DNA of 64,000 bases from a virus. Shown one piece after another: positions 39,362 through 61,875 of the stretch. How positions within the stretch are numbered: position 1 is the stretch's first letter; each line of letters starts with the position of its first letter. The notes below the pieces were generated by a model. It was not told where the DNA came from and made no database searches. It saw only the letters and a program-made list of their open reading frames with translations. Where the stretch lies: IMG/VR virus record IMGVR_UViG_3300010234_000004, positions 38,603 through 102,602 of that record; one strand, 5' to 3'. Both the position numbers and the translations under genes were made by a program.

Positions 39362-40250
<889 letters not shown>

Positions 40251-46494: not shown

Positions 46495-46517
46495 GGGGGC
46501 TTCGGCCCCCTTTTTTT
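46495..46517 (+). terminator. Intrinsic terminator with UUCG loop
   Basis: GGGGGC-TTCG-GCCCCC-TTTTTTT. Confidence 0.88.
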
Positions 46518-46519
46518 GT

Positions 46520-47542
46520 CTAGAAATAACTGTTGAACCGACCATCTCGCTTGAGGTCTAGAGTTGAACAGTGTAACCCTCCATCCCAAAACGATGAATG
46601 CCGTCGGGGTACGACGACCGGTTCAATATCATTACTTTTCAAGATTTTGAATATCGCTTCATCGTATGCTGGAACCACCATTGTACGTTCATCTATCATA
46701 AACGTGTTCACGTTGAAAGATGATTCAGCCGTGTATCCGACAAAGCTACCTAACCACTGTTCGACATATTCGGTAAATTCGTCGTTATCCTCTTCACCCG
46801 GCACCCACCATTTTCCCTCATTCTTCTTTTTAAGCCGACTGAAGGCCTTTATACTTTCTATGGTGTTTGGTGCCACTGGATAGCGTTTCCAGCGTGGAAA
46901 CAGCTTGTCGTAGTCAATAGAGGGTATTTGAGGCCTATCACACGTGAGTACGACCCCTTCCTTGAGAATAGCAAAGCACCCATCATTATGCTTGCCCACT
47001 TCATATGTGACGATATCATATTCACCCCAAGCCAGCTTAATGAAATTTTCCATATCCTCGCTGATATGCTTCACGTCTAGGAGTATTCGATTCCCGACCA
47101 CTGCAACGAACGGAGCGTCGAATTGGTCATCGCTATAATCCATTAATGTGAAGTCGATTTCGGAATAGTCGTTTAGCCGTTCATGTATCGACGGATGATC
47201 GAATAACGTGGTCACCACCATATCATTTCCGATCACAACCTGACCATCACGTGGCATGTTTGGTGGTCTGTAACGCATAGCTACACGACCGTCAGAGTCG
47301 GTGCTATCCATGATCGTTTCAACTGGACACAACTCAGGCCTGATAACCTCAACGGAAGCCGATTCCAGTACCCGTTTAAGAGCCTGAAAGTCTTCCTCTG
47401 TTTCAGCGGATATTTTTTGTAGAGCGTCACGTATTCTGGAGTTCTTGATCGGTTCATAATATTCGGGGCGATGTGACCTTCCGATCATCATCACCCTCAA
47501 TTTCGACCAAGGATCGAATACGTTATAACTGTTAGCGATAAT
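46520..47542 (-). CDS. Amidinotransferase (glycine/inosamine-phosphate amidinotransferase-like pentein); start uncertain
   Basis: NMPRD; HNDG; FNVN; WDGGLHCSTLDLKR with catalytic Asp/His/Cys. Confidence 0.8.
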   Translation of the reverse strand: MIANSYNVFDPWSKLRVMMIGRSHRPEYYEPIKNSRIRDALQKISAETEEDFQALKRVLESASVEVIRPELCPVETIMDSTDSDGRVAMRYRPPNMPRDGQVVIGNDMVVTTLFDHPSIHERLNDYSEIDFTLMDYSDDQFDAPFVAVVGNRILLDVKHISEDMENFIKLAWGEYDIVTYEVGKHNDGCFAILKEGVVLTCDRPQIPSIDYDKLFPRWKRYPVAPNTIESIKAFSRLKKKNEGKWWVPGEEDNDEFTEYVEQWLGSFVGYTAESSFNVNTFMIDERTMVVPAYDEAIFKILKSNDIEPVVVPRRHSSFWDGGLHCSTLDLKRDGRFNSYF

Positions 47543-47876
47543 GACGGTTCCTTTGCATTCTACGCATTTCGCGAAGATAAACAGTCCGACAGAAACGAAC
47601 ACGACCTGAGTATGTGCGATATGTGTTGTTGCGACGTTCGTATGAGTAATAACGATTCCTACACCAACGGATATGCTTGCGCTCCAAGCGACGGTACTCC
47701 CGCCGATAATTCCGGCTGTTATATCGATAATCTCTTCGGCCAAATTCCAAATTCAATTCAGGTGTGAGTCTTAGCGTGAAATCCGCTGCATCTGCGGGGG
47801 TTGGCTTCAGAGTGAAAATGAAACCGACAACGATTGCAAATCCAATGAGCGCCAACGTGAGTTTAAGTCTTGACAT
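47532..47876 (-). CDS. BA14K-family secreted lectin-like protein
   Basis: Signal peptide plus HIRWCRNRYYSY..NTYRTYSGRVRFC. Confidence 0.75.
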   Translation of the reverse strand: MSRLKLTLALIGFAIVVGFIFTLKPTPADAADFTLRLTPELNLEFGRRDYRYNSRNYRREYRRLERKHIRWCRNRYYSYERRNNTYRTYSGRVRFCRTVYLREMRRMQRNRHYR

Positions 47877-47878
47877 GG

Positions 47879-48130
47879 TTATACCTCTCTTGATTCTTTG
47901 AACGACATTTCGTCCTTTAGTGTTAAGTCTGCGTCAGTTTCGATCCACGCACGCGCACCACAATTCAACTGATCGCCGTTATAGACCAACTTGGATGGTC
48001 CGTTTATTACTACTTCTCGCGCATATCGAGTTTTCTTTGAACCAAATTTGATGGTGTATACCGGACGATCCATCCCATCCTTTGCGTTCATAGAAATATT
48101 CTGCCTATTCACATGGATGATCTTCTTCAT
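47879..48130 (-). CDS. Conserved phage hypothetical protein
   Basis: IIHVNRQ..EVVINGPS..CGARAWIET. Confidence 0.7.
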   Translation of the reverse strand: MKKIIHVNRQNISMNAKDGMDRPVYTIKFGSKKTRYAREVVINGPSKLVYNGDQLNCGARAWIETDADLTLKDEMSFKESREV

Positions 48131-48667
48131 CTACTTAGCCTCCAGACGATAGTCAGGATACTTTTTCATCAGTTTCTGAATGTGCCTATTATCGACTGTA
48201 TATTGATCGCCAACCGATATGACCTTATTGTTATGACCATCCAGAAAACGCTTACTATACTCAAGCCCGCGTTCTGGAGTCCACCACGCTTCTGTGACGC
48301 CAGCGGAGAAATTTCTATGCAGGCCAAAGGTAGGTTTAACCATTCGTATGAGGTGAATCTGCATCCCGTCATATTCATATTCAGTTATGTTTTTAATATC
48401 CTGCATATGCTCGTACTGAGACGATTTTTTAATTGACTTGGTGTCGACCTTTTGTAGAAGGCCACGATGATCATTTCGTCTAATCTGTTTATCAGTTACA
48501 GGATTGGTCCACGTGTGCGGTACATAGTAGTAAAAATCCAGATCATTAGCTGGCCGTTCCAGAAACCAATCGGCTGGAGCGCCTCCAGCAAGAATGCAAT
48601 GTGGATCAATACCCCTAAAAATATCATAAACACGCTCAGCGATATCCATTTGTTGGGTGATGTTCAT
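48131..48667 (-). CDS. Pol-beta-like nucleotidyltransferase (CCA/poly(A) polymerase head-like)
   Basis: ILAGGAPADWFLERPANDLDFY; ATGA-coupled start. Confidence 0.65.
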   Translation of the reverse strand: MNITQQMDIAERVYDIFRGIDPHCILAGGAPADWFLERPANDLDFYYYVPHTWTNPVTDKQIRRNDHRGLLQKVDTKSIKKSSQYEHMQDIKNITEYEYDGMQIHLIRMVKPTFGLHRNFSAGVTEAWWTPERGLEYSKRFLDGHNNKVISVGDQYTVDNRHIQKLMKKYPDYRLEAK

Positions 48668-49353
48668 GTTGTCGTACTCCTCAGATTCCGTTGGATGGTG
48701 GTATAGAATGTTTTGGTGACCCCCAGTTTTGGGATTAGTTGCCGACACATAATAGCATCGTTAGGCCACATTCCATACTTTTTTACTGCTTTGATCAGAG
48801 AACGGGCACCCTCCGGCTTGATGATGTAAGCAGAATTGCCTGCCAAACCCATTGGGATATTGATATTATCATCGACCAATGGAACAAGGTTGAACTCATT
48901 CGGACAGGCTTTCACCATATCATAATACTTTTTAGATAGGCGAGTGGCACCCCTTGGATCATTCACCCCGATAATGTTCAGAGCGGTTTCTTCAATATCC
49001 AAGGCGTCAATGTCTTTGATGAAAACAGCATCATGCTCCAGAATCATAATCGGACGGTCAAGTTTGACGCAATGCTTCCAGAGAATGTAATGGCTCATCG
49101 AACACGCCATTCTAGCATTCCTATCGCGTGTAGGATATGGAATCTTCAACATGCCAGACACCAAATCGATCTCACTACGTTCCCAAGGCCAGTTCCATTC
49201 GACACCAGCCTGCTTCATCTCCCAAGCGACTGATGATGGTGTAACCGCATCAAATCGAAATACTGACCCGTTAGCCGACTTGTTCAACACCTCGAATGCG
49301 CGTTCAGACACGTCATGGAATGGTATAACAATGGCATATTTCTTGATGTTCAT
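48664..49353 (-). CDS. GT25-family glycosyltransferase
   Basis: FDAVTP; ACSMSHYILW; ILEHDA; AYIIKPEGA. Confidence 0.8.
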   Translation of the reverse strand: MNIKKYAIVIPFHDVSERAFEVLNKSANGSVFRFDAVTPSSVAWEMKQAGVEWNWPWERSEIDLVSGMLKIPYPTRDRNARMACSMSHYILWKHCVKLDRPIMILEHDAVFIKDIDALDIEETALNIIGVNDPRGATRLSKKYYDMVKACPNEFNLVPLVDDNINIPMGLAGNSAYIIKPEGARSLIKAVKKYGMWPNDAIMCRQLIPKLGVTKTFYTTIQRNLRSTTT

Positions 49354-49559
49354 TTAATCTTCTCCGCTATCCAATCGGTAAGTTCCTGACTGGATTCCTT
49401 ATTCAAAAATATATACATGCTGTCTTTTCGGCCCGTCGTATCGAGAAGCTCAATCTGCACTTCATCTTCATCATAAGTCACATCAATAGCAGTGAACCCT
49501 TGATATATAACTATTTTTTCCGAATCGTTAACTGTCGTATGACATTTTTTATAAGACAT
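49350..49559 (-). CDS. Hypothetical protein
   Basis: 69-aa ORF with AAAGG RBS downstream of a sigma70 promoter. Confidence 0.55.
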   Translation of the reverse strand: MSYKKCHTTVNDSEKIVIYQGFTAIDVTYDEDEVQIELLDTTGRKDSMYIFLNKESSQELTDWIAEKIK

Positions 49560-49583
49560 GTTTTACCTTTCATAAGTACAGTT

Positions 49584-49612
49584 ATTATATCACATACGTG
49601 GAGGAGTTTCAA
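49584..49612 (-). promoter_or_regulatory. Sigma70-type promoter with extended -10
   Basis: TTGAAA-17-TATAAT with TGTG. Confidence 0.6.
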
Positions 49613-49615
49613 GTC

Positions 49616-50329
49616 GTGATTTCAGTTTTTTGTGTTAATTGGGGCACCAAATACCCCCCGTATTATGTTCACAAATTGCAACAGGCAGTGGAGAGACACC
49701 TATCCTACCCACACATATTCTACGTGATCACCGATAATCCCGAAGCATATGACAACTCCATTCCAGTAACTGATGACCTGCCTATCTGGTGGAATAAGTT
49801 ACTACTCTTCAGACAGACCGGCGATTGCATCTATTTTGACTTGGACGTAATCATTCATAACTCAATCGATTGGTTGATTGAAGATATGACCGACAAGATG
49901 CGACTGATTGATACATCTTGGAAGAACAAGGAACAGGTCATTTCGACGCCAGAGATGCCGTCTAAGGGCATTACCACAATCAACAGCAGTGTCATGTCAT
50001 GGACAGACGAAACGGCTCTCTTAGACGCCTTCCTGTCCGATCCTGAAGCCATAATGTTCAAATACGAGGGCGATGATAACTTCTACATGCACAACGCCGA
50101 CTACCAAACACATCGACACGGCGAAATTTACTCATACAAACGCGGTGCCAGTCAAGACGATTGGGAACATTGGAAGTACCGGAAAGACTATTCGATAGCC
50201 ACTTTTTCCGGCCTTCCAGATATTCACGACTGTTTAACTCATCAAATCGTTAAAGACAATTGGGGTGAACCCCCACCCACACACCATGGAAGCGTTACCA
50301 AACCCGTCAACGATGACATTACCGACTGA
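49616..50329 (+). CDS. GT-A fold glycosyltransferase
   Basis: FCVNWGTKY; WWNKLLLF; YFDLDVII; INSSVMSW; GGAGGAG RBS; late-like CATAAGTA at 49571. Confidence 0.8.
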   Translation: MISVFCVNWGTKYPPYYVHKLQQAVERHLSYPHIFYVITDNPEAYDNSIPVTDDLPIWWNKLLLFRQTGDCIYFDLDVIIHNSIDWLIEDMTDKMRLIDTSWKNKEQVISTPEMPSKGITTINSSVMSWTDETALLDAFLSDPEAIMFKYEGDDNFYMHNADYQTHRHGEIYSYKRGASQDDWEHWKYRKDYSIATFSGLPDIHDCLTHQIVKDNWGEPPPTHHGSVTKPVNDDITD

Positions 50330-50596
50330 CAAAGATGTCATATCAACACCTTCGATGCGAGTGATGCGCTCTTCGGGTCCGATATTTCCGAATTCGAAAA
50401 CTTCATCGAGATCAGAGGCTTCGATCTCACATACCTTAACGAAATACTCTTGAGCGAAATCGTAATTCGCTTGAGCGTTCTCGCAGGTAGTAAGCATCAG
50501 CTTACCCATAGCGGATGATGCATGGGGGTTCTCCCCAGAGTTGATGTCACTGTAGATCGTTTCGGTAAGGTGGAATTGATAAACTGAATATTTCAT
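50234..50596 (-). CDS. Hypothetical early protein (YodL-like)
   Basis: YSVYQ..DLDEVFE..SLSVGNVIV; follows early cassette. Confidence 0.55.
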   Translation of the reverse strand: MKYSVYQFHLTETIYSDINSGENPHASSAMGKLMLTTCENAQANYDFAQEYFVKVCEIEASDLDEVFEFGNIGPEERITRIEGVDMTSLSVGNVIVDGFGNASMVCGWGFTPIVFNDLMS

Positions 50597-50676
50597 TTCA
50601 AATCTCTCTCTGTTGGTTTCTGACACCTTGATAGCATAAGAAATAGGGGTCGTCAATCCCCCCTCTGAATTATTTT
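50597..50676 (-). promoter_or_regulatory. Early promoter stem-loop cassette, copy 3
   Basis: TTGACG-17-TATCAA-GGTGTCAGAAACCAACAGAGAGAG. Confidence 0.75.
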
Positions 50677-50682
50677 TGGCAC

Positions 50683-50859
50683 TTAACTTCTGACCTGAAT
50701 CCTGACCTGATTACTGACCTGAACCCAGACCTGACCCCAGACCTGACCACAGACCTGATCCTCGACCTGATTATAGACATGTCTCCTGACCTGATCCTCG
50801 ACCTGACCCCTGACCTGACCCCAGACCTGATCCTCGACATGATTCCTAACTGATTTCAT
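50683..50859 (-). CDS. xxQV-repeat mini-protein H (58 aa)
   Basis: MKSVRNHVEDQVWGQV..QVRS*. Confidence 0.6.
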   Translation of the reverse strand: MKSVRNHVEDQVWGQVRGQVEDQVRRHVYNQVEDQVCGQVWGQVWVQVSNQVRIQVRS

Positions 50860-51055
50860 TATGCACCTGACTCCTGACCTGATTCCAGACCTGACTCCTG
50901 ACCTGATCACTGACCTGAACCCAGACCTGACCCCAGACCTGACCACAGACCTGATCCTCGACCTGATTATAGACATGTCTCCTGACCTGATCCTCGACCT
51001 GACCCCTGACCTGACCCCAGACCTGATCCTCGACATGATTCCTAACTGATTTCAT
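50846..51055 (-). CDS. xxQV-repeat mini-protein G (69 aa)
   Basis: MKSVRNHVEDQV..QVHNEIS*. Confidence 0.6.
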   Translation of the reverse strand: MKSVRNHVEDQVWGQVRGQVEDQVRRHVYNQVEDQVCGQVWGQVWVQVSDQVRSQVWNQVRSQVHNEIS

Positions 51056-51206
51056 TATGCACCTGACTCCTGACCTGATTACTGACCTGAACCCAGACCT
51101 GATCCCAGACCTGACCACAGACCTGATCCTCGACCTGATTATAGACCTGACCCCAGACCTGATTATTAACCCGATCCCAGACCTGTTTCTTAACGGATTT
51201 CATCAT
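51042..51206 (-). CDS. xxQV-repeat mini-protein F (54 aa)
   Basis: Hand-translated: MMKSVKKQVWDRVNNQVWGQV..QVHNEIS*. Confidence 0.6.
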   Translation of the reverse strand: MMKSVKKQVWDRVNNQVWGQVYNQVEDQVCGQVWDQVWVQVSNQVRSQVHNEIS

Positions 51207-51234
51207 GCACCCAATTCCTAACTGATTTCATCAT
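51190..51234 (-). CDS. Collapsed xxQV unit E (14 aa, head and tail only)
   Basis: MMKSVRNWVHDEIR*. Confidence 0.45.
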   Translation of the reverse strand: MMKSVRNWVHDEIR

Positions 51235-51415
51235 ACACCTGATCCCAGACCTGATTCCAGACCTGACTCCTGACCTGATCACTGACCTGAACCCCGACCT
51301 GACCCCCGACCTGAATACTGACCTGACCCCAGACGTGATCCTCGACGTGATCCTCGACCTGATACCAGACCTGACCCTCGACCTGATCCCAGACCTGTTT
51401 ATTAACACTATTCAC
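51218..51415 (-). CDS. xxQV-repeat mini-protein D (65 aa)
   Basis: GTG start after GAGGAG; MNSVNKQVWDQV..QVYDEIS*. Confidence 0.6.
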   Translation of the reverse strand: MNSVNKQVWDQVEGQVWYQVEDHVEDHVWGQVSIQVGGQVGVQVSDQVRSQVWNQVWDQVYDEIS

Positions 51416-51635
51416 TGATTTTCTCCTCGACCTGATTCCCGACCTGTTTATTGACCTGAAGCCAGACCTGATCCTCGACCTGATCCCAGACCTGATCCCC
51501 GACCTGAACCCAGACCTGAACCCAGACCTGATCCTCGACATGATTCCCGACCTGTTTATTGACCTGATCCTCGACCTGATCCTCGACCTGATTCCCGACC
51601 TGATCCCTGACCTGAATCCTAACTGACTTCATCAT
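51408..51635 (-). CDS. xxQV-repeat mini-protein C (75 aa)
   Basis: MMKSVRIQV..NQVEEKISE*. Confidence 0.6.
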   Translation of the reverse strand: MMKSVRIQVRDQVGNQVEDQVEDQVNKQVGNHVEDQVWVQVWVQVGDQVWDQVEDQVWLQVNKQVGNQVEEKISE

Positions 51636-51807
51636 ACACCTGATTCCTGACCTGTTTATTGACCTGATCCTCGACCTGATCCTCGACCTGATTCCTGACC
51701 TGAAGCCAGACCTGATTCCTGACCTGACCCCCGACCTGATTCCTGACCTGACCCCAGACGTGATCCTCGACCTGATTATAGACCTGAATCCTAACTGTCT
51801 TCATCAT
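51619..51807 (-). CDS. xxQV-repeat mini-protein B (62 aa)
   Basis: MMKTVRIQV..QVYDEVS*. Confidence 0.6.
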   Translation of the reverse strand: MMKTVRIQVYNQVEDHVWGQVRNQVGGQVRNQVWLQVRNQVEDQVEDQVNKQVRNQVYDEVS

Positions 51808-51988
51808 ACACCTGAATCTGGACCTGACGCCAGACCTGAACCCAGACCTGAACCCAGACCTGATTCCAGACCTGATCCTCGACCTGATCCTCGACCTGAT
51901 CCTCGACCTGATCCTCGACCTGACCCCAGACCTGATCCCAGACCTGATCCGCGACCTGATTATAGACCTGTCTCCTAACACTATTCAC
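51791..51988 (-). CDS. xxQV-repeat mini-protein A (65 aa)
   Basis: GTG start after GAGGAG; MNSVRRQV..QVYDEDS*. Confidence 0.6.
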   Translation of the reverse strand: MNSVRRQVYNQVADQVWDQVWGQVEDQVEDQVEDQVEDQVWNQVWVQVWVQVWRQVQIQVYDEDS

Positions 51989-53183
51989 TGATTTTCTCCT
52001 CGACCTGATTTCTTCCATTAGGGTCAACCCGCAAACCATACTCAGTCTTTTCATAATCATCATTAATCACAAGTCTTCGATTGAAACGTCTGTAATCCAC
52101 ATTATGGTGCCACCGTCCAAACTTTTTTACTACTTCTACACAGTCGGGATGCTGTTCCTGCAATGATTTAGCAAAACCCAACCTATCATCACCACCAAGG
52201 TATACCGAATCTGTGTTACCACCCCTGACCCTTTGAGTGGTTACCTTACCAGCCAAAAAACCATTCATTAGAATAGTGTTATATCCGGCCTTTAGAATCC
52301 GTAGAGATAGGTCAGTATCCTCATTAAAACGGCCTCGCCACATTTGTCCATTATCATCGCGAACACCTTCCAAATTCTTGTACATTAGCGTGCACGAATA
52401 TATTCGAGTGTTCAGATAATATGGAGGCACGTGATCGGTCTTCTTAGCAAATGAGTGATAGTTCAGGCCAGCCTGTCCGACGTTTGTGAAACGTGCGCTG
52501 TAGTCTTCCACCACCCTAAACATCGTGTCGGTTCTGGACACATATTTGGTGTTGTCATTCATGATATAGAATTCTTCGATGTTATCATCCATCAACCAAT
52601 AACGATCATGATCAGCTAACTCATCATTAACAAAATTTCTCACCGGAATGCTGCACCCGCTGTTTACATCAAAGTCACCAGTGACCACCCGATCACCCCA
52701 CCTCTCTTGATATAAGGCCATCTCAGAGGGTTCTACGACAATCTGATAGTCTGCACCCAACCTATCAAGACTGGCCGCTGTGATGCAGTTAGGACGCCCT
52801 TTTGATATGATATAGATCGGGCATCTGGGTTTGAGATTGCTATCAGAAACCCATGCAAAATCCCCCAATGTTCTGTCGAGTTGTGGATACCATACACTTT
52901 TGGTCTTATCCGTAATCGGTTGATCTAAAAGCTCAGATAACTTTTTATTACTAAAATCAGTGTCCACTTTGAACAGAGCAAAGGATTCGACCTTTCTCGA
53001 CACGAATGGTGGCATATCCGCATAGAACGGATCATCCAGATTATAATCCTTCTTAGGGTGCACCTTTCCATACTTCGGTCTGGCCCATGTATCAAACAGG
53101 GCATCAGTATTACCAAACCTCTCAGATATGTAATCAGTTGCTGACTGGTCGCCTGTTCTAATATTGAGAGTCCTCAATCCCAT
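51981..53183 (-). CDS. TET-associated/GREB1-like (T2/T6 beta-alpha-glucosyltransferase-like) glycosyltransferase with N-terminal extension
   Basis: PIYIISKGR; IVVEPSE; WLMDDNI; RIYSC; WRGRFNEDTDLSLR; GGNT; HHNVDY. Confidence 0.7.
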   Translation of the reverse strand: MGLRTLNIRTGDQSATDYISERFGNTDALFDTWARPKYGKVHPKKDYNLDDPFYADMPPFVSRKVESFALFKVDTDFSNKKLSELLDQPITDKTKSVWYPQLDRTLGDFAWVSDSNLKPRCPIYIISKGRPNCITAASLDRLGADYQIVVEPSEMALYQERWGDRVVTGDFDVNSGCSIPVRNFVNDELADHDRYWLMDDNIEEFYIMNDNTKYVSRTDTMFRVVEDYSARFTNVGQAGLNYHSFAKKTDHVPPYYLNTRIYSCTLMYKNLEGVRDDNGQMWRGRFNEDTDLSLRILKAGYNTILMNGFLAGKVTTQRVRGGNTDSVYLGGDDRLGFAKSLQEQHPDCVEVVKKFGRWHHNVDYRRFNRRLVINDDYEKTEYGLRVDPNGRNQVEEKISE

Positions 53184-53380
53184 TGCTTATAATCACCATT
53201 GTCTTCGTTTTCATAGAATCCCGCTGCATAGGCTTCGTACTCTTCCATATCCTCAAGGATTTCGATGCGTTCAGATGAACCAGTGGCACCCAAGTAGTAA
53301 TGAGGCGTGAAAGGTCGACGATAATAGGAATCCGCTGACCCTCTATCAAATGGTCCACCATGTCGCTTATCGTAAGACAT
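53174..53380 (-). CDS. Conserved phage hypothetical protein
   Basis: RHGGPFDRGSADSYYRR..PHYY..YAAGF..KQWD. Confidence 0.7.
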   Translation of the reverse strand: MSYDKRHGGPFDRGSADSYYRRPFTPHYYLGATGSSERIEILEDMEEYEAYAAGFYENEDNGDYKQWD

Positions 53381-53389
53381 TTTATTCCT

Positions 53390-53473
53390 TTACGTTAGAG
53401 CAAGGGAGGCAATAGCGAATCCCATAATGAATGTAGCGAATACTAATCCGCCAAGAATGTTTTTGAACGTCAT
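53390..53473 (-). CDS. 27-aa hydrophobic peptide
   Basis: Hand-translated MTFKNILGGLVFATFIMGFAIASLALT*, AAGGA RBS. Confidence 0.45.
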   Translation of the reverse strand: MTFKNILGGLVFATFIMGFAIASLALT

Positions 53474-53589
53474 TTCTTTTCCTTCGCCGTTTCAATGATA
53501 TCCCTAGCCAGATATCTTTCATGTGGACTACTGTCCGACCATAATGCATCCATTATAGCCTTTGCTTCAGCCTCTGTCAATATTATCAT
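53470..53589 (-). CDS. 39-aa hypothetical protein
   Basis: Hand-translated MIILTEAEAKAIMDALW..; ATGA-coupled to next gene. Confidence 0.45.
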   Translation of the reverse strand: MIILTEAEAKAIMDALWSDSSPHERYLARDIIETAKEKK

Positions 53590-53597
53590 TATTTTTC

Positions 53598-53825
53598 CTA
53601 TCCAGTGATGTATTTAGAGTTGACACCCGCTTGGCGACGGAAACCGTTCCAAGCCTTGTTGGCGCGAAAGAAAGCGATGTTGATTGCTTTCTTGGCGTCT
53701 TCACCGCTTAGGTCGCAATCCCATGCGGCGTCATTTGCAGCTTCCTGCTCATCACCGCAAAAGTCGCGGCAGTTGATGATACGCTGTTTGATGGTGTCAA
53801 TTTTAATTTCTGAGATAAATGCCAT
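53598..53825 (-). CDS. Hypothetical early protein
   Basis: GAGGA RBS; CRDFCGD; follows early cassette. Confidence 0.6.
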   Translation of the reverse strand: MAFISEIKIDTIKQRIINCRDFCGDEQEAANDAAWDCDLSGEDAKKAINIAFFRANKAWNGFRRQAGVNSKYITG

Positions 53826-53910
53826 TTCCGCTATTCCTCTGTGCATGTCGGTTTCTGACCCCTTTATGTCATAGAAAAAGGGGGCTGTAAACCCCCTTAA
53901 TGCATTTTTT
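53826..53910 (-). promoter_or_regulatory. Early promoter stem-loop cassette, copy 4
   Basis: GGGGGTTTACAGCCCCC hairpin; TTTACA-17-CATAAA-GGGGTCAGAAAC. Confidence 0.7.
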
Positions 53911-53928
53911 TGAAGAAATTTGAATAAA

Positions 53929-54342
53929 TTAGCCCTTCACGTCCAGCATCAGCACCTGTGGAGTTTTCTTCAATTGGAAGGCCACGTCCAAACGAGTGTT
54001 ACCAGCGAGAACTCGCATCTGACCGTTTGGATAGCGCAGAACCAATGGCATGGTCATACTTTTGTTACTACCGATGCGGTCATACAGGTTGTCCAGAGTC
54101 TTCTCGTTACGAAATTCGGGATACGAGCGATACGATTTGATCAGGCTCAAGAGGGACTCTTTACTACCCGTGCGAGAGCGATAAGCGATCTTACGATCAA
54201 CGGATGAGGAAAGCTTTACTACTTCACCCTCTTTAGCCATCTTGATGAACTCAGCTTCGCTATCAACAAAGCGGTGTCCCTTGAGTACCACTTCAACGTG
54301 ATATTCTTGCTTCAAGTCTTTGGTGGTTGGTTTGATCCACAT
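53929..54342 (-). CDS. ParB/Srx-like fold protein
   Basis: MPLVL..VLAGNTRL motif. Confidence 0.5.
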   Translation of the reverse strand: MWIKPTTKDLKQEYHVEVVLKGHRFVDSEAEFIKMAKEGEVVKLSSSVDRKIAYRSRTGSKESLLSLIKSYRSYPEFRNEKTLDNLYDRIGSNKSMTMPLVLRYPNGQMRVLAGNTRLDVAFQLKKTPQVLMLDVKG

Positions 54343-54380
54343 TTTAGCGATCCTTTGAAATTGGTGATTGTCTCAACTAC

Positions 54381-54581
54381 TTATAACCCTTCATACTCAT
54401 CAGCAAAGGTATCGAACATCCGCTGATATACCACACCAGGAAAGAAACTGCCGACCTCGCGGTAAACGTCAGCGTCAACGTAATCCCAGTTAACCGTATT
54501 ATCCTCGTTACGGTTTTCAGTGTTGCCGACTGCCTCATTAAAGGCAACAGCAAATGCTGGGTGAACTTCAAAATATGTCAT
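54381..54581 (-). CDS. Hypothetical protein
   Basis: AAGGA RBS; ENRNED..VNWDYVDADVY. Confidence 0.65.
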   Translation of the reverse strand: MTYFEVHPAFAVAFNEAVGNTENRNEDNTVNWDYVDADVYREVGSFFPGVVYQRMFDTFADEYEGL

Positions 54582-54602
54582 AATATACTTTATCCTTTTG
54601 AG

Positions 54603-54872
54603 TTAAGCTACTTCTCTATCCCAGCAGTAGCATCCATCTTCACCGACAATCAATTTAGCGTCGAGAGTGTCTTGATTATTTTTAGCCCAAGCATTGAACT
54701 GCTTGGCGATTTCCAGACCGGACTTTCTTTCGGAAACGTCGATTGAGCGGAAGGAGCCATTCTCTGAAATTACACTGTAGGCCTCACCTTGGTACTCTTC
54801 AACTGTGTAGTATTTATTTGCTTCTGTTGTGATGAAGTATCTGTGATCGCTTTTCTTTTCGATGGTGAACAT
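54603..54872 (-). CDS. Hypothetical early protein
   Basis: Follows early cassette copy 5. Confidence 0.6.
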   Translation of the reverse strand: MFTIEKKSDHRYFITTEANKYYTVEEYQGEAYSVISENGSFRSIDVSERKSGLEIAKQFNAWAKNNQDTLDAKLIVGEDGCYCWDREVA

Positions 54873-54950
54873 GTCGTTTTCTCTCTATCTTGTTTCTGAC
54901 CTCTTTATGACATAAGAAATAGGGGTCGTCAACCCCCCTTTTGAATTATT
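54873..54950 (-). promoter_or_regulatory. Early promoter stem-loop cassette, copy 5
   Basis: GGGGGGTTGACGACCCC; TTGACG-17-CATAAA. Confidence 0.75.
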
Positions 54951-54981
54951 TTTTGTGTTCATCCCACCACATATATGTCAT
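54946..54981 (-). pseudogene. Chimeric mini-ORF MTYMWWDEHKK (recombination scar)
   Basis: RBS+MTY matches gene 54381-54581; TYMWWDEHKK* matches end of gene 55222-55587. Confidence 0.8.
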
Positions 54982-54998
54982 AATATAATCCTTTTGAG

Positions 54999-55148
54999 TT
55001 ATACAGATTCAGTGCGAACAGTCATACCTTTGGCCTGCATTTCAGCAACCTTTGCATCGATCTGTTCTTGATTGTCCGTTACTAGGACTTCCACCCACTC
55101 TTTACGAGTGAGGTGAGCGAATGAAGATTTGAAGTACACTGAAGTCAT
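54999..55148 (-). CDS. Hypothetical early protein (49 aa)
   Basis: MTSVYFKSSF.. after cassette copy 6. Confidence 0.6.
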   Translation of the reverse strand: MTSVYFKSSFAHLTRKEWVEVLVTDNQEQIDAKVAEMQAKGMTVRTESV

Positions 55149-55228
55149 GATGTTCTCTCTCTGTTTGTTTCTGACACCTTGATAGCATAGAAAAAGGGGG
55201 GTCGTCAACCCCCCTTCTGAATTATTTT
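55149..55228 (-). promoter_or_regulatory. Early promoter stem-loop cassette, copy 6
   Basis: GGGGGTTGACGACCCCC; TTGACG-17-TATCAA-GGTGTCAGAAAC. Confidence 0.75.
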
Positions 55229-55587
55229 TTATGTTCATCCCACCACATATATGTCTGATCTCCATATAGATCGGTCTGAACATTATACATCACTCTCCAC
55301 ATATTATTATACGCAGCATGACGGAAATCTTCATCAACGGAATCCTTGAAGTTATCATAATCAATATCATTAATTCGTGTAGATATAAGATCAGCCACCA
55401 CTGCCTTCGGGACAAACACCCTAAACCGATAGTCACTATCATCTGTCTCGATAATTGGAGCTTCAAAATTGGTCGTGTCGAATACGTTATGGAGATCATC
55501 ACGTACTCGCGCACGTACAACCGCCCCATCAGGATTATTCCGATCCTGTACTACACTCAAAAATGAGTCATTCATTGTAATCCACAT
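55222..55587 (-). CDS. Conserved phage hypothetical protein
   Basis: MWI..FLSVV..VRAR..DYRFR..IDYDNFK. Confidence 0.7.
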   Translation of the reverse strand: MWITMNDSFLSVVQDRNNPDGAVVRARVRDDLHNVFDTTNFEAPIIETDDSDYRFRVFVPKAVVADLISTRINDIDYDNFKDSVDEDFRHAAYNNMWRVMYNVQTDLYGDQTYMWWDEHKK

Positions 55588-55614
55588 TTGTTATTCCTTT
55601 CATAAAATTTAATC

Positions 55615-55643
55615 ATTATACCACAATCGAGACCAAAAATCAA
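55615..55643 (-). promoter_or_regulatory. Sigma70-type promoter with extended -10
   Basis: TTGATT-17-TATAAT with TGTG. Confidence 0.6.
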
Positions 55644-56335
55644 GGCCTAATATTGTAATACTGCCATTTAGCGTTATGGAAGTCTTCGAAATAATCGCCA
55701 CCAGTGCGTTCTTTATATCTGGCGGCGTATAGGTCATATTTATCAGGATGGTGCTTCATACACCAATCTGGTGGCTGTAAGACCACATCATCCTTGACCT
55801 GATCCCAAACGAAATACTGCTCACCATGGCCCATAACGCTTACCGTTCCATTTTCATAATATTTCATCCGGTGGTGCGCGACATCCTCCATATAAGTGTC
55901 ATATACGTGTTTCCAGTTGTGGCTCTTGAATTTGTAGAAGTTGCCCGAAATCAGGCAATCGTTATCTCGCCACCACCGATCTGTCGAAACGAATTCATCA
56001 TCCTTCACTTCCCACTCAATAACGTCCCACGGTTCAATCCACTCCATATCAATATCGAGAATGATGGTTTCATCACCCTTCTTCACACCACGGATATATT
56101 TCGGATCGAAGAAGAAAATCTTTGACCAATGCTCGTGATGTGCAATGTCTTCTGGGGGAAATTGATATGTGTTAGCGTATTCTGGTGCTGTATTCGGCGT
56201 GTCAGTTAGAATATGGAATTTAGTGTTTTCTGAATTATCACGTATCGCATCACAAGTTGAATGCACAAGCTCATTTGCGTCCATACCCTGAACCGTGTAG
56301 CCATATTTGACCATACAGACATGGGTCGCCTTCAT
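55640..56335 (-). CDS. GT-A fold glycosyltransferase
   Basis: HVCMVKYG; FHILTD; WSKIFFF; ILDIDM; GEQYFV. Confidence 0.7.
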   Translation of the reverse strand: MKATHVCMVKYGYTVQGMDANELVHSTCDAIRDNSENTKFHILTDTPNTAPEYANTYQFPPEDIAHHEHWSKIFFFDPKYIRGVKKGDETIILDIDMEWIEPWDVIEWEVKDDEFVSTDRWWRDNDCLISGNFYKFKSHNWKHVYDTYMEDVAHHRMKYYENGTVSVMGHGEQYFVWDQVKDDVVLQPPDWCMKHHPDKYDLYAARYKERTGGDYFEDFHNAKWQYYNIRP

Positions 56336-56571
56336 GAATCCATTATACCCTTCAAATGCTGTTCAAACGCCTCAATCTTGGCCACCCGATCCGGCCACAA
56401 AATGTACTCCTTTTCAGGATTGGCCTTCAGGTTTGTCAATAGAAGGGATATGGCGTCAAACATCTCAACGCTTTTCTTGTCTGCCTGCTCAACCGTGGCG
56501 ACAGACTCTTTGTAAACGTCCAACTCATCATGATTGACCGTAGTGAATCCGAAATCAAATATCTCTGTCAT
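56332..56571 (-). CDS. Conserved T4-like phage hypothetical protein
   Basis: FDFGFT..NLKANPEKEYILWPDR. Confidence 0.7.
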   Translation of the reverse strand: MTEIFDFGFTTVNHDELDVYKESVATVEQADKKSVEMFDAISLLLTNLKANPEKEYILWPDRVAKIEAFEQHLKGIMDS

Positions 56572-57014
56572 AACACATCTCTATGCTTGTTAATGTAAAC
56601 CCAATTGATGAAGTCCATATATGCATCTTGGGCCATAACTTCGGCATCATTCCATTCTGTGAATTCGAAATTATATTTCGTTGGGGAGACGAACATTTTA
56701 TTCGTATCGTCAAACCGACCTTCCTCAATGCAATTCATCCAGATCACGTAATCTGCACCAAACTCTTTACGCGTTTCCTCCGTTGGACACACAAAGTCCA
56801 CCAAGGCTGTTTTACCAGCCATAACGATACCATCGGACAAATAGCGCATACGAGCAGCCTGCCGAATACGACCCTCAGTTGAAAAATCCCAGTCGTCGTA
56901 TTTTTTCCTGACCTCATCAGCGTTCACTCGAACCGAAGATATATGCTTTTCTAACCCATCAGCAAGCGTGGTTTTTCCCGACCCCGGCAACCCACATACC
57001 AAAATCTTCATCAT
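56568..57014 (-). CDS. cysC: Adenylylsulfate (APS) kinase-like
   Basis: GLPGSGKTTLA; NADEVR..DWDFSTEGRIRQ; DFVCP. Confidence 0.75.
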   Translation of the reverse strand: MMKILVCGLPGSGKTTLADGLEKHISSVRVNADEVRKKYDDWDFSTEGRIRQAARMRYLSDGIVMAGKTALVDFVCPTEETRKEFGADYVIWMNCIEEGRFDDTNKMFVSPTKYNFEFTEWNDAEVMAQDAYMDFINWVYINKHRDVL

Positions 57015-57625
57015 GTCACCTTTTTACTCTTATTTCTGATTACCATTTCAACGTTGTCTGGGAGTTCAATCTTCGGCACATCCTTATAGTAGTAAATTTT
57101 AAATTTCCGATCCTTGAATTCTTTGAACAGCAATGCCCAAACAGGCCTCCAGTTATCAGCCAATCGGCGACTATTCTCAACTGAGCGGTCACTGTTTAGA
57201 TAAAAATCTGTTACGCTCTGGAGATCAATGCTGAACATGGAGTCGAATCCATACATATGAATCACGTCGGCATTCTTCTTGGTCAGTAGATAATAAGCGC
57301 CCATGTGACCACAATTAAATGTTGTATAGTCTGGACAGTAATCAGGCATGTCCGTGAACATCTCACGAATCTGACCCGAATATTTCATGTAGAACGCAGG
57401 ATAGGTTTCAGTCCATATTTTCGGGCGGGCACCAATAATCCACTCACCCGGGACCGTCACCGATCCATCGGCTATTGCGTTCATCATCTTAAAATCGACC
57501 ATGAATGTCGCCTTAGCATTCGGTACTGCAAACGGGGGTAAATTGCACGTGTACACCTCCCCAGCCTCATCCGGATCATATAGACCAGCAGATTTACCAT
57601 TGCCTAATAGATGAAATTCATTCAT
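57011..57625 (-). CDS. Sialyltransferase/Maf-like (GT29/GT42-type fold) protein
   Basis: LLGNGKS; CN; NCGHMGA; IHMYGFDS. Confidence 0.5.
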   Translation of the reverse strand: MNEFHLLGNGKSAGLYDPDEAGEVYTCNLPPFAVPNAKATFMVDFKMMNAIADGSVTVPGEWIIGARPKIWTETYPAFYMKYSGQIREMFTDMPDYCPDYTTFNCGHMGAYYLLTKKNADVIHMYGFDSMFSIDLQSVTDFYLNSDRSVENSRRLADNWRPVWALLFKEFKDRKFKIYYYKDVPKIELPDNVEMVIRNKSKKVT

Positions 57626-57630
57626 TTTAT

Positions 57631-58299
57631 TTATTCCCTTATACCATTCTCAATGGTACTTAGCTGCCTTGTAATTTCATCATTTCCCCTCTGACCAGTC
57701 CAATGCATGACCCGAACACGCTTCGGACACGTGTTATCCTGAATTTGGAGTCGTAGAACGTTATATTCATTTGGTAGAGTAGTAATAAAAACCATCTTGG
57801 CCAATGGACTCATCATTGAATGAAGCACTTCTTGATCCCCCACAAGATTGGTTTCCCGACACCGATCTCTCCAATCCAACAGAACATCAGGAACGCCATT
57901 CTTGTTGGTGTAGGCGATGACTCCAGAGTTGTACCATTCACCCGATTCCGGTCGTCTGGTTGTCCATGGCTGATCAATCGCCATGGACAACTTATGGTCT
58001 TCAACCTTATCGAAAATGTCGCTGATATCGTCTCTGATCTCACAATCAGTATCCAGCCAGCATATATTTTCAGCGAATGCAGACGCTTGAACCAAAGCGG
58101 CGGTCTTTTTGAACCACCCCTTCATGGATTCTGCACCTCTAAGGCTCTTTCGCATGTTTGCAAATTGAGATGACCTCTCCATACCGAAGTCATATATGAT
58201 TAGCTCTTCGTTTGGCATGTGCCTTTGGAAGTTCTTGACGAACCAAGGTAATTGCCATTCAGTATTAGAATCACAACCTGTTATGAATAGTCTACTCAT
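57631..58299 (-). CDS. GT8-like glycosyltransferase
   Basis: WLDTDCE; YNSGVI; GDQEVL; LPNEYNVLR; MHWTG. Confidence 0.8.
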   Translation of the reverse strand: MSRLFITGCDSNTEWQLPWFVKNFQRHMPNEELIIYDFGMERSSQFANMRKSLRGAESMKGWFKKTAALVQASAFAENICWLDTDCEIRDDISDIFDKVEDHKLSMAIDQPWTTRRPESGEWYNSGVIAYTNKNGVPDVLLDWRDRCRETNLVGDQEVLHSMMSPLAKMVFITTLPNEYNVLRLQIQDNTCPKRVRVMHWTGQRGNDEITRQLSTIENGIRE

Positions 58300-58491
58300 T
58301 CATTCACTCCTGACCTGAACCCAGACCTGAACCCAGACCTGATTCCAGACCTGATCCTCGACCTGATCCTCGACCTGACCCCTGACCTGACCACAGACCT
58401 GATCCTCGACCTGACCCCAGACATGGTCCTCGACCTGAAAACAGACCTGATCCCAGACCTGACCACAGACCTGATTCCTAACCGATTTCAT
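58300..58491 (-). CDS. xxQV-repeat mini-protein I (63 aa), locus 2
   Basis: MKSVRNQVCGQVWDQVCFQV..QVRSE*. Confidence 0.6.
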   Translation of the reverse strand: MKSVRNQVCGQVWDQVCFQVEDHVWGQVEDQVCGQVRGQVEDQVEDQVWNQVWVQVWVQVRSE

Positions 58492-59449
58492 CAGTGATAC
58501 GTTTTCGGGCCAACTCGATGGCCGCATCCTGTGGATCATCCTCATGAGTGACCAACCTGACAATTTCGCGAAGACTGTCAAAATCTCCCGTTGTCATTTC
58601 TTTGTTCAAAGCAACTGCCATGACTCCACCAGCATTCGCCACAAAATCGGGAACGTAGTAGAATTTCTCAGACGCCCATTCCTGAACCTGTTTAGAAGAA
58701 AACTGATTGTTAGCCGCTCCACAGATAAATTCAACTGTCAAATCAGCGAAGTTATCCTCATTGATCGCCCCACCTAAAGCGCAAGGCGCGAAAACATCAG
58801 CCGCAATGTTATAGATATCCTTCTCAGAAACCATATTCACACCATCCATTTCTTTTACTACTGGATCGTATGCGTTAATGGTCACACCGTCAGCCAATAG
58901 TAATTTAGTAAGCTTAGAGCCGACTTTACCAAGACCTTGAATGTTGACAATGGTCTCATTTAGTGGAACGTCACTATTATAACGTCCAAGCAGTTCCATC
59001 ATGCACGCGTATACGCCCATGGCCGTAGGACCAGAACTATCGATGTCGATCCCGCCAACCCACTTAGTGGATTTCTGGATCATGCGAAGATCGTGTTCAT
59101 CAGTGCCGACATCGCCTGCAATGATATATGTGCCACTCAAAGTATTAATGAAATTGCCCAGCCGCTCGAACGCCAGATCGCGGTTCTTGATTTTTGACGC
59201 ATCGACAGCAGTTTTACCGCCACCATGATTAATACCGCACGCCGAATTCTTATGGGTCATGCCTTCAGCCAACCGTAGAACGTCGTTAAACTGTGCGGCC
59301 TCGTCTTCATAAACCATACACCGACAACCGCCCAAGGCTGGACCCAGTTTGGTATTGTGTATCGCGACTAATGCGAATAGTCCCGATTCCTCATCCTCAA
59401 CCCGAAATATCGCCTCGAACCCAGGATGACTGATATAAGCACTTTTCAT
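58478..59449 (-). CDS. Glu/Leu/Phe/Val dehydrogenase (leucine dehydrogenase-like)
   Basis: IHNTKLGPALGGCR; LAEGMTHK; GGGK; QGLGKVG; FAPCALG; GAANNQ; PDFVANAGG. Confidence 0.9.
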   Translation of the reverse strand: MKSAYISHPGFEAIFRVEDEESGLFALVAIHNTKLGPALGGCRCMVYEDEAAQFNDVLRLAEGMTHKNSACGINHGGGKTAVDASKIKNRDLAFERLGNFINTLSGTYIIAGDVGTDEHDLRMIQKSTKWVGGIDIDSSGPTAMGVYACMMELLGRYNSDVPLNETIVNIQGLGKVGSKLTKLLLADGVTINAYDPVVKEMDGVNMVSEKDIYNIAADVFAPCALGGAINEDNFADLTVEFICGAANNQFSSKQVQEWASEKFYYVPDFVANAGGVMAVALNKEMTTGDFDSLREIVRLVTHEDDPQDAAIELARKRITDEIG

Positions 59450-59461
59450 TTTTAGACACTC

Positions 59462-59683
59462 CTATTTATTATAAACCACAATCTCACATGAATCCCAATC
59501 CCCGAAGAGATCGTCAGGCTCAAAATAATCCGAACACGTATAGCGAGTGATCTTACCAGAGATCGAGTTGAAATTTTTATCATTCGAACCATGATCATGA
59601 TTATTAAGGTGCAATAGAAAGGATACGCATACGAGCAGCAAGCTCACAAGAATCATGGTATTAGTAGTGGTCATTTTTATCAT
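59462..59683 (-). CDS. Small membrane-anchored hypothetical protein
   Basis: N-terminal hydrophobic helix. Confidence 0.5.
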   Translation of the reverse strand: MIKMTTTNTMILVSLLLVCVSFLLHLNNHDHGSNDKNFNSISGKITRYTCSDYFEPDDLFGDWDSCEIVVYNK

Positions 59684-60662
59684 CTCTACACCAAGCATCG
59701 ACTTGCTTTATTAATTTCATAAACTCATCTTTATATTTATCTCCAATTATACCACACTTTGCACGCCATTGCAACACAATCTCTTCAAGTTTTTCCTTTG
59801 GTACATTTTTGAGCGATAGGTGTTTAGGGTATATCACCGTATTGAATGCCAGATAGATATAACGATCCTCACAGAACTCCACGAAATCTTCCATTTCTTC
59901 ATAGTTATTGACCATCGGACAAACCTGTATAACCAATTCGCGGTGATGCTGATGACAAATGTCAACAAACTCATCAACATTGGCCATAAGCTTTTTGAAA
60001 TTTCCGTTTACTCTGATCTGTTCATATCGCTCAGGAATCAGGCTATCGATGCTGATATTCAAGTGAATGTTACACGTAACCATGAACTTCCTTACAACCC
60101 TGTTGAGTACCGATCCGTTGGTCGCTATTACTACTTTCAGCGTCGGGTTGATTTCGGCCACTGCATCTAAAATCTTATGGACGATCTTCTGAAGGAACGG
60201 CTCGCCTCCATTTATTCGTAACTCGCTTAGATGTGGAATGAACTCACGCATCTGCACAACGAAAGAATCGTCATACATCATTTTTTGAGGCGGTAGCTTA
60301 TCTCTATTCTTCCGGATGCCAGAACTCAACTGACCCCAGCACATCACACACTCAAGATTACATTGATTGCTCAACTCCAATTCAATGACTGATGGATAAT
60401 CATTCATCGGATATCCCGAATACGCGTCCGACAGTGTTGGGATTTTGTGGAGCATGTCTTTACTACATTCTCCACACCGACCCATGCTGTAGTCATTTTC
60501 AATCAGGGTACTTCGATAATTATCGAAGAAGTCACCATTCCAAATATCCATCAGTGAATTATCACCCGACCAGACAGGTGATTCCTCCATGGATTTCCAA
60601 CATGGTGATACACGTCCAAGAACGTCGATATACATATTTATGAATGGCGCTCTACATGTCAT
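59661..60662 (-). CDS. Radical SAM protein with N-terminal SPASM/twitch-like domain
   Basis: CRAPF..GRVSPC..CGEC; CNLECVMC; GGEPF; TNG. Confidence 0.85.
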   Translation of the reverse strand: MTCRAPFINMYIDVLGRVSPCWKSMEESPVWSGDNSLMDIWNGDFFDNYRSTLIENDYSMGRCGECSKDMLHKIPTLSDAYSGYPMNDYPSVIELELSNQCNLECVMCWGQLSSGIRKNRDKLPPQKMMYDDSFVVQMREFIPHLSELRINGGEPFLQKIVHKILDAVAEINPTLKVVIATNGSVLNRVVRKFMVTCNIHLNISIDSLIPERYEQIRVNGNFKKLMANVDEFVDICHQHHRELVIQVCPMVNNYEEMEDFVEFCEDRYIYLAFNTVIYPKHLSLKNVPKEKLEEIVLQWRAKCGIIGDKYKDEFMKLIKQVDAWCRDDKNDHY

Positions 60663-61312: not shown

Positions 61313-61875
61313 CGACTATCGCTCCCTAAAATATCCGCCATGGTGTTATGCCATTTCACACCAGGATGTTCGTTGTCTGTACCGTAATCACCCATTAGGT
61401 GGTGATTTACTGATTCGTTACTACTCTCCACAAGATCGATCCCATTAGCATCACAAAATGAATGAAGCATCAACTGATTCTTTTGACGTAAATATTCACG
61501 CCAGTTGTCATTATCCAACGCCTCAAATGCTTTATGATGAGGCATGATGATAATGTCTCTGTCTCTATATAGGTGTTTCCAACCGTGGAATTCACCGTCC
61601 TCATCCAACCATTCATATCGAATCGGGAATGACCAGACTACCATTATAACACGCGGGTAGAAGTTTTCACAGTATGTAATGGCGTTCCTGAGAATCTTTT
61701 CGTTACTTGCTCCCCGCTCACCACAATTTAGAACCCCCAACTTTGATGAGAACGTCTGATCCGCCTGAACCCCCACGCCCCACGTGAATGAATCCCCAAA
61801 TGCAGCAGGGGAACCATTGATTGGTTCCCCCACACGTCGATCCCAATCGACAAAATCTTCGAAATATCTAGTCAT
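61309..61875 (-). CDS. SGNH/GDSL hydrolase-fold protein
   Basis: FGDSFTWG; NCGERGASN; DNEHPG. Confidence 0.7.
   Translation of the reverse strand: MTRYFEDFVDWDRRVGEPINGSPAAFGDSFTWGVGVQADQTFSSKLGVLNCGERGASNEKILRNAITYCENFYPRVIMVVWSFPIRYEWLDEDGEFHGWKHLYRDRDIIIMPHHKAFEALDNDNWREYLRQKNQLMLHSFCDANGIDLVESSNESVNHHLMGDYGTDNEHPGVKWHNTMADILGSDSR

Follow-up and report, generated by a model that had tools for sequence, protein, structure and literature searches.

What is encoded, if anything, by a stretch of phage DNA in which a 12-nucleotide (nt) unit is repeated about 105 times in phase, and what might its products be for? The question is raised by array A1, at positions 50683-52010 on the minus strand of the window analysed here, namely the 64,000 nt that span bases 38603-102602 of the 102,602-bp linear IMG/VR virus contig IMGVR_UViG_3300010234_000004, whose completeness is estimated at 63% (positions below are those of the window unless contig bases are named). 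Array A1 is made up of eight overlapping mini-genes built from x-x-Q-V tetrapeptide units. These mini-genes are very probably real coding genes derived from the central tract of phage proteins that carry the DUF6745 domain. The best explanation of the locus as a whole, to which we assign a probability of roughly 55%, is that they are coding paralogues of that tract, translationally coupled and diversifying, that would serve as exchangeable helical modules.

All the surrounding genes lie on the minus strand, on which A1 reads nnnnnTCAGGTC, that is, x-x-Gln-Val; the plus strand reads GACCTGAnnnnn. Tandem Repeats Finder reports a period of 12 and 104.5 copies at 50692-51970, and the two-unit pattern GACCTGAnnnnnGACCTGA, with at most one mismatch, is matched 125 times in the window against 0.05 matches expected. 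About 88% of 225 in-register units have CAG GTC at positions 7-12, and 207 have T at position 6, variation being restricted to positions 1-5 and drawing on a small vocabulary (ED, WG, RN, WD, RS, WV, YN, SN and others). An initial annotation, made from the letters of the window, had described eight consecutive QV-repeat open reading frames (ORFs) of 14-75 amino acids (aa) at this place and at least 13 members at three loci, and both descriptions are accurate: the ORFs, the repeat analysis and the pattern count bear out the former, and the three loci of the window hold 8, 1 and 4-5 members. Beyond the window lies a fourth array, bringing the contig total to at least 20 mini-genes of 14-79 aa. 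The number of units differs among these paralogues, and array strand matches gene orientation on both arms of the contig.

50683-52010, minus strand: array A1, about 105 phased 12-nt x-x-Q-V units forming eight overlapping mini-genes (repeat and ORF analysis)
51791-51988, minus strand: mini-gene 1, ORF of 65 aa from GTG, head MNSV
51619-51807, minus strand: mini-gene 2, ORF of 62 aa, head MMKTV, tail YDEVS
51408-51635, minus strand: mini-gene 3, ORF of 75 aa, tail EEKISE
51218-51415, minus strand: mini-gene 4, ORF of 65 aa from GTG, head MNSV, tail YDEIS
51190-51234, minus strand: mini-gene 5, ORF of 14 aa, a head-plus-tail remnant without repeats that ends in HDEIR
51042-51206, minus strand: mini-gene 6, ORF of 54 aa
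50846-51055, minus strand: mini-gene 7, ORF of 69 aa
50683-50859, minus strand: mini-gene 8, ORF of 58 aa, the last of A1, without a tail motif
58300-58491, minus strand: array A2, one 63-aa mini-gene (repeat and ORF analysis)
63353-64000, minus strand: array A3, with three complete mini-genes at 63670-63873, 63525-63689 and 63353-63538
63854-64000, minus strand: a further A3 mini-gene, truncated by the contig end
Contig bases 1-1303, outside the window and on the opposite strand: the fourth array, seven ORFs

Four of the six reading frames are open merely through the design of the repeat, so that the absence of stops is by itself weak evidence for coding. The observation of the initial annotation that the QV frame lacks internal stops gains its weight from a different count: the 225 variable dicodons contain no TAG, TGA or TAA, against 17.5±3.1 expected and a minimum of 8 among 2,000 within-column nucleotide shuffles. 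TAG is avoided though TAT, TGG, GAG and AAG are all used and though its three bases, T, A and G, are frequent at their respective positions. The claim does not extend to the whole contig, where the sole in-frame stop in about 230 units is a CAG>TAG change at contig bases 351-353 (plus strand), outside the window and six codons before the normal stop of one fourth-array mini-gene. Moreover, when the heads were compared across the arrays of this contig and four other lineages, codon variation in MKSV (AAA/AAG; TCA/TCG/TCC/TCT; GTT/GTC/GTA) was only synonymous in the head frame, and the same variation was non-synonymous in the overlapping tail frame, where it changes the tail residue among S, G and R or between I and V.

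Relatives in IMG/VR point to the same frame. In an exact-pattern scan the same phased heptamer was located at 117 or more loci, and of the 33 arrays flanked on each side by 600 nt or more, 29 have only the QV frame running on, for about 240-600 nt upstream and 615-940 nt downstream. These extensions enter conserved N-terminal and C-terminal domains, and all four proteins that were scanned match DUF6745 (PF20530) and phrog_31813. A second scan, for CAA GTN at a 12-nt period, returned at least 118 loci, including full-length DUF6745 genes with uniform CAA GTG, CAA GTT or CAA GTC tracts as well as ORFs of mini-gene size. Across lineages, then, the Q-V pair is written with CAG or CAA and with GTC, GTG, GTT or GTA, the spelling being uniform inside each array; residues that are kept while their codons differ argue for protein-level selection together with concerted evolution. 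Two other sets of ORFs were considered and set aside: the plus-strand mirror ORFs (MHLTPDL… to …MIPN, 50779-51978) look gene-like at every junction, and their equivalent frame stops at the flanks in relatives, and the minus-strand RSGIRS… frame is open through repeat design only and in relatives does not extend beyond the array. Some metatranscriptome contigs reach the edges of the array and two pieces inside it; these are not counted as evidence of transcription because DNA can occur in RNA libraries.

The profile search for relatives that the initial annotation had proposed was run with a profile built from 15 mini-proteins of this phage, and it was productive: 3,078 cluster representatives were matched, 490 of them at E <= 1e-10. 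The top matches are mostly proteins of 280-600 aa in which the matched segment is internal, and all six of that size that were sampled carry a C-terminal DUF6745. The mini-proteins share with these DUF6745 proteins the x-x-Q-V tetrad and the 12-nt unit, often with the TCAGGTC core, as well as the unit vocabulary, the limitation of variation to the first two residues and a tract predicted to be helical, and in this respect they show the central x-x-Q-V tract of the family. They differ in being stand-alone genes of 54-79 aa that have their own starts and stops and are chained, whereas in DUF6745 proteins the tract is internal; the C-terminal DUF6745 domain itself (about 200 aa) has no match in the mini-proteins. 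Judged by this shared unit and core, the mini-genes appear to be detached copies of the internal tract of DUF6745 proteins. Other search routes added little. BLAST-type searches of the array or the mini-proteins against GenBank phages gave nothing useful, probably owing to the low-complexity filter, and a word-indexed protein search returned only seven short relatives, none with an informative name. Matches of the mini-proteins to Pfam and PHROG families (DUF4816, YpjP, phrog_5189) were rejected as sub-threshold and driven by composition.

Such detachment is not peculiar to this contig. Other uncultured phages (records L101, L092/G001 and L114/G003) likewise carry chains of stand-alone QV mini-genes with MKSV-type heads and overlapping start/stop cassettes of their own, with the difference that a core gene lies beside the arrays there and none is present in this 63%-complete contig. 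Repeat-less DUF6745 genes of 289-295 aa occur in three of five fragmentary records with MKSV-type arrays, and a repeat-less core of this kind was found in L101, G001, G003 and G005. For example, L101 has a 290-aa repeat-less DUF6745 gene about 400 nt upstream of its mini-genes, one record has the order mini-genes, core, 117-aa gene and further mini-genes, and in another the core immediately precedes an array that reaches the contig end.

Within each array, neighbouring mini-genes are joined by one of two junction cassettes, in which the end of one gene and the beginning of the next are written in different frames. In the type 1 cassette one frame reads Q-V-(Y/H)-(D/N)-E-(I/V)-S-stop and the next frame reads M-M-K-S-V, with an AGGTG Shine-Dalgarno sequence 4 nt before the second ATG and a gene overlap of 14-17 nt. 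In the type 2 cassette the tail is Q-V-E-E-K-I-S-E-stop, the two Glu codons are the GAGGAG that stands 7 nt before the GTG start of M-N-S-V, and the overlap is 8 nt. Heads are thus MMKSV, MMKTV or MKSV with an ATG start, or MNSV with a GTG start behind a GAGGAG Shine-Dalgarno sequence. With every cassette the frame moves by one base, and successive mini-genes therefore rotate through all three frames. The heads, and the overlap of tail and head in another frame, are as the initial annotation had described them, with its tail types present in six of the eight A1 ORFs and the variant HDEIR in the 14-aa ORF; the tail is missing from the final gene of every array. Since head-codon changes that are silent in the head frame alter the tail residue, the tail reads as a by-product of the ribosome-binding site and start codon of the next gene and not as a peptide motif in its own right. 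The overlaps and the Shine-Dalgarno sequences are those of a translationally coupled operon, and coupling is predicted from them.

The same cassettes extend to genes that have no repeats:

51981-53183, minus strand: TET-associated glycosyltransferase (TAGT, PF20691), by family match
58478-59449, minus strand: Glu/Leu/Phe/Val-dehydrogenase-family gene, whose best named match, below the cut-off, is ScyB-like (amino-acid dehydrogenase)
63175-63369, minus strand: 64-aa non-repeat ORF with head MMKSVK, coupled to the last A3 mini-gene
Contig bases 358-588, plus strand: non-repeat small ORF with head MMKSVK

The start of mini-gene 1 overlaps the TAGT stop codon, with GAGGAG 7 nt upstream, and the last ten or so codons of TAGT (one QV unit plus EEKISE) duplicate 30 nt from the end of mini-gene 3. 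In the dehydrogenase-family gene, the C-terminus DEIG is written by a junction cassette and overlapped by an MKSV start, which is that of the A2 mini-gene, whose stop in turn abuts the next ATG. The two MMKSVK-headed ORFs, of which that at contig bases 358-588 retains the period-4 hydrophobic pattern and a normal tail, may be captured genes or ancestral-like forms. Exact-junction scans found a complete cassette of either type (YDEIS/MMKSV, EEKISE/MNSV) nowhere else in IMG/VR or the JGI metagenomes, and a relaxed junction pattern gave, in the same collections, two chance matches only, both without arrays.

Structure prediction, in turn, argues for a helical product. With an alignment of paralogues, AlphaFold2 models the 75-aa protein of mini-gene 3 as a single uninterrupted helix over residues 2-74 (mean confidence, pLDDT, of 84), and in this model the Val at each fourth residue forms a hydrophobic stripe that winds round the helix. 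A full-length DUF6745 relative is modelled with confident N-terminal and C-terminal domains (pLDDT of about 90) and with its tract as an antiparallel helical hairpin of low confidence (pLDDT 45-60). No match at E <= 0.001 was found when this model was compared with the PDB by Foldseek, and the best VIA-align match (Z of 5.8) was to generic coiled-coil hairpins, which offer no functional lead. A two-copy complex prediction for the 75-aa mini-protein scored 0.00, a value obtained without controls that says nothing on self-association. Of the two folds put forward in the initial annotation, the helical, coiled-coil-like one agrees with these models, and the cross-beta polymer does not, the models being all-helical. 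The accompanying suggestion of an amyloid decoy that mimics a RIP homotypic interaction motif (RHIM) loses its footing as well, because the core tetrad of that motif, (I/V)-Q-(I/V/L/C)-G, turns up 3 times (as IQVG or VQVG) in 1,101 residues, and 1.9 occurrences would be expected if units were adjacent at random.

The arrays also bear marks of rearrangement. Exact blocks of 40-172 nt are common to the arrays, within and between all four, including blocks of 42-67 nt shared by arrays that are kilobases apart and on opposite strands, and mini-genes 7 and 8 have in common an exact tandem duplication of 172 nt; such blocks indicate recent duplication and exchange. Strain rearrangements and a 24-nt (two-unit) insertion fit the same picture, and diversification by slippage and recombination, as first proposed in the initial annotation, is therefore well in keeping with the data. 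Both ends of the contig stop at copies of internal array sequence, contig bases 1-55 being a 55-nt exact copy of sequence near window position 51183 and window positions 63946-64000 a 55-nt exact copy of sequence near 58452. This is consistent with breaks in the assembly graph of a de Bruijn assembler at k=55, and it suggests that the arrays continue into the missing 37% of the genome, which they would bound on both sides. Because of these 55-nt repeats and the 172-nt duplication, the exact number and order of the genes in the assembly are uncertain. In three independent marine studies, contigs were found that contain both array pieces and the flanking genes, the latter at about 96-98% identity; no public contig is colinear through the array, and alternative joins and the two-unit insertion are seen. 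These short-read contigs establish that the array exists in nature and that either strains differ in it or assembly fails on it. Its true structure is not settled by them, and array parts that they leave uncovered are uninformative.

How, then, might the locus work? In the proposed scheme, A1 and its sister arrays would encode a family of small (54-79 aa), all-helical x-x-Q-V proteins that are free-standing paralogues of the hypervariable central tract of DUF6745. They would be transcribed from host-type (sigma-70) early promoters and read serially through the two cassettes, each supplying a stop, a Shine-Dalgarno sequence (AGGTG or GAGGAG) and the next start. The four arrays would gain and lose units and exchange them, internally as well as with one another, under selection that preserves an open QV frame and fixed Q, V and MKSV residues. 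The helices could then serve a DUF6745-type system of host interaction or counter-defence as its variable, exchangeable modules, such that one phage would display many tract variants at once. This would differ from the single tunable tract of gp54 of mycobacteriophage Tweety, a protein with 40-48 A-A-x-x repeats and invariant third codon positions (PMC2884959), in which repeat gain and loss tunes the neutralisation of the Phrann gp29/gp30 defence (PMC9262239). The functional part of the scheme, rapidly diversifying exchangeable helical modules of a host-interaction system, is drawn from this analogy and is put forward tentatively. A bolder version, in which repeat recombination yields a library of some 20 or more interchangeable helical inserts that plug non-covalently into one DUF6745-type core or pair with one another, is rather doubtful. 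If it were true, a single infection would field many variants of one host-interaction or counter-defence complex, and the locus would generate diversity at the protein level by other means than diversity-generating retroelements or the tuning of repeats in a single gene.

Several observations weigh against this reading. DUF6745 was not found in the six-frame translation of the 102.6-kb contig with the Pfam model, the PHROG model or our own hidden Markov model (HMM) built from 49 relatives, and neither was the N-terminal domain of the family (about 90 aa, KLTxEQ…GLST), for which the best E-value of our own HMM was 0.45. Nor was a partner family detectable in the same contig, and without a core or partner gene the proposed partner is hypothetical for this phage. 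The near-perfect nucleotide identity of the constant 7 nt could reflect recent expansion and not selection. A literature search returned no paper that names DUF6745, and among cultured phages the Microcystis phage Ma-LMM01 group and a Mycobacterium prophage have homologues, which are labelled hypothetical. As for Tweety gp54, it has no Pfam match and aligns to DUF6745 with an hhalign probability of 0.1%, and hence the functional link is an analogy of design only. It must be added that both contig ends lie within arrays, so that the core may lie in the gap: the unassembled third of the genome probably contains this repeat-less gene.

The absence of a core gene from the 102.6-kb contig is also an argument for supposing that the mini-proteins act alone, as self-associating or target-binding amphipathic helices such as decoys or sponges for a QV-recognising host factor, with the paralogues broadening specificity. 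Two of the five other array-bearing records lack a core as well, though these are just 6% and 11% complete, and ESM Atlas clusters of 58-83-aa viral proteins, with 63-148 members, resemble the query (a lead only). We regard stand-alone action as unlikely, given that arrays adjoin repeat-less DUF6745 genes wherever enough sequence is available and that the contig is incomplete and ends within arrays on both sides. It is also conceivable that the locus is a runaway coding minisatellite, in which pieces of the DUF6745 tract together with a self-propagating start/stop cassette multiply by unequal recombination in early operons and are tolerated with little or no function. The near-identical tandem copies (172 nt exact), the 14-aa remnant, the one member with a premature stop and the grafting of cassette sequence onto TAGT, the dehydrogenase-like gene and non-repeat ORFs would all sit well with such a history; avoidance of stops in the QV frame, head variation that is synonymous only and the occurrence of the detached arrangement in several distinct lineages with different cassettes do not, and this explanation is accordingly judged quite improbable.

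Three further explanations carry still lower probabilities. A function at the DNA or RNA level, with phased TCAGGTC/GACCTGA heptamers binding a protein or AGGT motifs titrating ribosomes and the ORFs being incidental, would account for the near invariance of 7 of the 12 positions, third codon positions included, and for the recurrence of the heptamer at no fewer than 117 IMG/VR loci. The initial annotation had held out a protein-binding or decoy array of this kind as its alternative. Since other lineages spell Q-V as CAA plus GTG, GTT or GTA, in full-length DUF6745 genes and in mini-genes alike, the heptamer is a poor candidate for the functional entity, and the period that is a strict multiple of three, the specificity of stop avoidance to the QV frame and the flipping of array strand with the surrounding genes leave such a function very unlikely. 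Scarcely credible, in our estimate, is the idea that the mini-proteins are precursors of ribosomally synthesized and post-translationally modified peptides (RiPPs) that are matured by the adjacent radical S-adenosylmethionine (SAM) enzyme, dehydrogenase or glycosyltransferases: the arrays do have a radical SAM gene (59661-60662) and several glycosyltransferases among them, but the former is of the N-terminal twitch type (below cut-off) and not a recognised peptide maturase, nothing longer than the five-residue head could serve as a leader, and the L092 and L101 arrays adjoin DUF6745 genes with no radical SAM gene seen in neighbours that were read and not family-scanned. An assembly artefact of the short-read metagenome, which the initial annotation named as one outcome that would undo its claims, has on its side the 55-nt exact repeats at both contig ends, the 172-nt duplication inside A1 and the lack of a colinear public contig; array pieces together with flanks of about 96-98% identity in three independent marine studies, and the same architecture in many unrelated IMG/VR assemblies, reduce its chances almost to nothing. 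The interpretation given in the initial annotation is, overall, partly supported, its omissions being the identity of the DUF6745 tract and the origin of the tail in the cassette.

Returning to the setting of the arrays, the source phage is a T4-like marine myovirus, and the public runs that contain it are marine metagenomes. By tail sheath, its nearest cultured relatives are Kyanoviridae at only 36-44% identity (for example, 44% for Pelagibacter phage Mosig and 37.5% for Phage C48C1, both of that family); these two phages were examined, and neither has a QV array or DUF6745. The sigma-70 promoter upstream of TAGT precedes small ORFs, then TAGT and then A1, in one operon, and its position suggests that the TAGT/array block would be transcribed early by the host polymerase. 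No close relatives came from a search for loci related to the TAGT protein. An island of sugar or modification genes, with the arrays scattered through it, occupies 46500-62000 (minus strand); TAGT, the dehydrogenase-family gene and the radical SAM gene also belong to it. The features concerned are as follows:

35211-37034: tail sheath gene (family scan)
50645-50662, minus strand: terminator-like GC hairpin with a T-rich tail, about 20 nt past the stop of the last mini-gene
53552-53580, minus strand (reading 53580 to 53552): consensus sigma-70 promoter, TTGACA-17-TATAAT, 12/12 (sequence scan)
48664-49353: glycosyltransferase family 25 (GT25)-like gene, within the island
49598-50329, plus strand: phrog_1962 glycosyltransferase, within the island
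56568-57014: adenosine 5′-phosphosulfate (APS)-kinase-like P-loop kinase, within the island
57631-58299: weak nucleotide-diphospho-sugar transferase-like gene, within the island
59661-60662: radical SAM gene, best match to an N-terminal twitch-domain family, just below its cut-off
60659-61312: GT25-like glycosyltransferase, within the island

Repeats of other kinds were also noted in this genome. Collagen-like G-x-y tandem repeats with periods of 27, 36, 54 and 63 nt occupy 39480-39894 (plus strand), inside the structural-region ORF 39342-40250, with PKPE-type 12-nt repeats at 39236-39303, just 5′ of them, and a 120-nt tandem repeat in two copies (92% identical) lies at 24536-24779 (plus strand), inside ORF 24137-25441, a putative fibre or structural gene.

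The DUF6745 family with QV tracts is very large, comprising thousands of phage proteins, and entirely unstudied, and the mini-genes offer a way into it, because small soluble helices are easy to make and would provide a simple handle for finding what the tract binds. They may also have been systematically missed in marine viromes, genome ends included, since the arrays break short-read assemblies and the genes fall under the usual ORF-length cut-offs.

Among known systems, Bordetella phage BMP-1 offers a likeness in variable region 2 of bbp36, a non-essential gene with short tandem repeats of variable copy number (PMC2884959); there the unit is of 24 bp and lies within one gene, and the likeness is by description only. 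The closer parallel in design is Tweety gp54 (with Che8 gp57 and PMC gp51), which has in-frame 12-nt repeats encoding a tetrapeptide of two fixed and two variable residues, variation at first and second codon positions with the third invariant, and a repeat number that differs between related phages; it differs in its A-A-x-x unit and in being a single gene with its own N-terminal and C-terminal domains. Few features of phages have been shown to be tunable against a bacterial defence, and tetrapeptide-repeat tracts, through gp54, are among them; if the present reading is true, splitting such a tract into separate, fast-shuffling genes would be a different route to variation, in which many versions are made in parallel.

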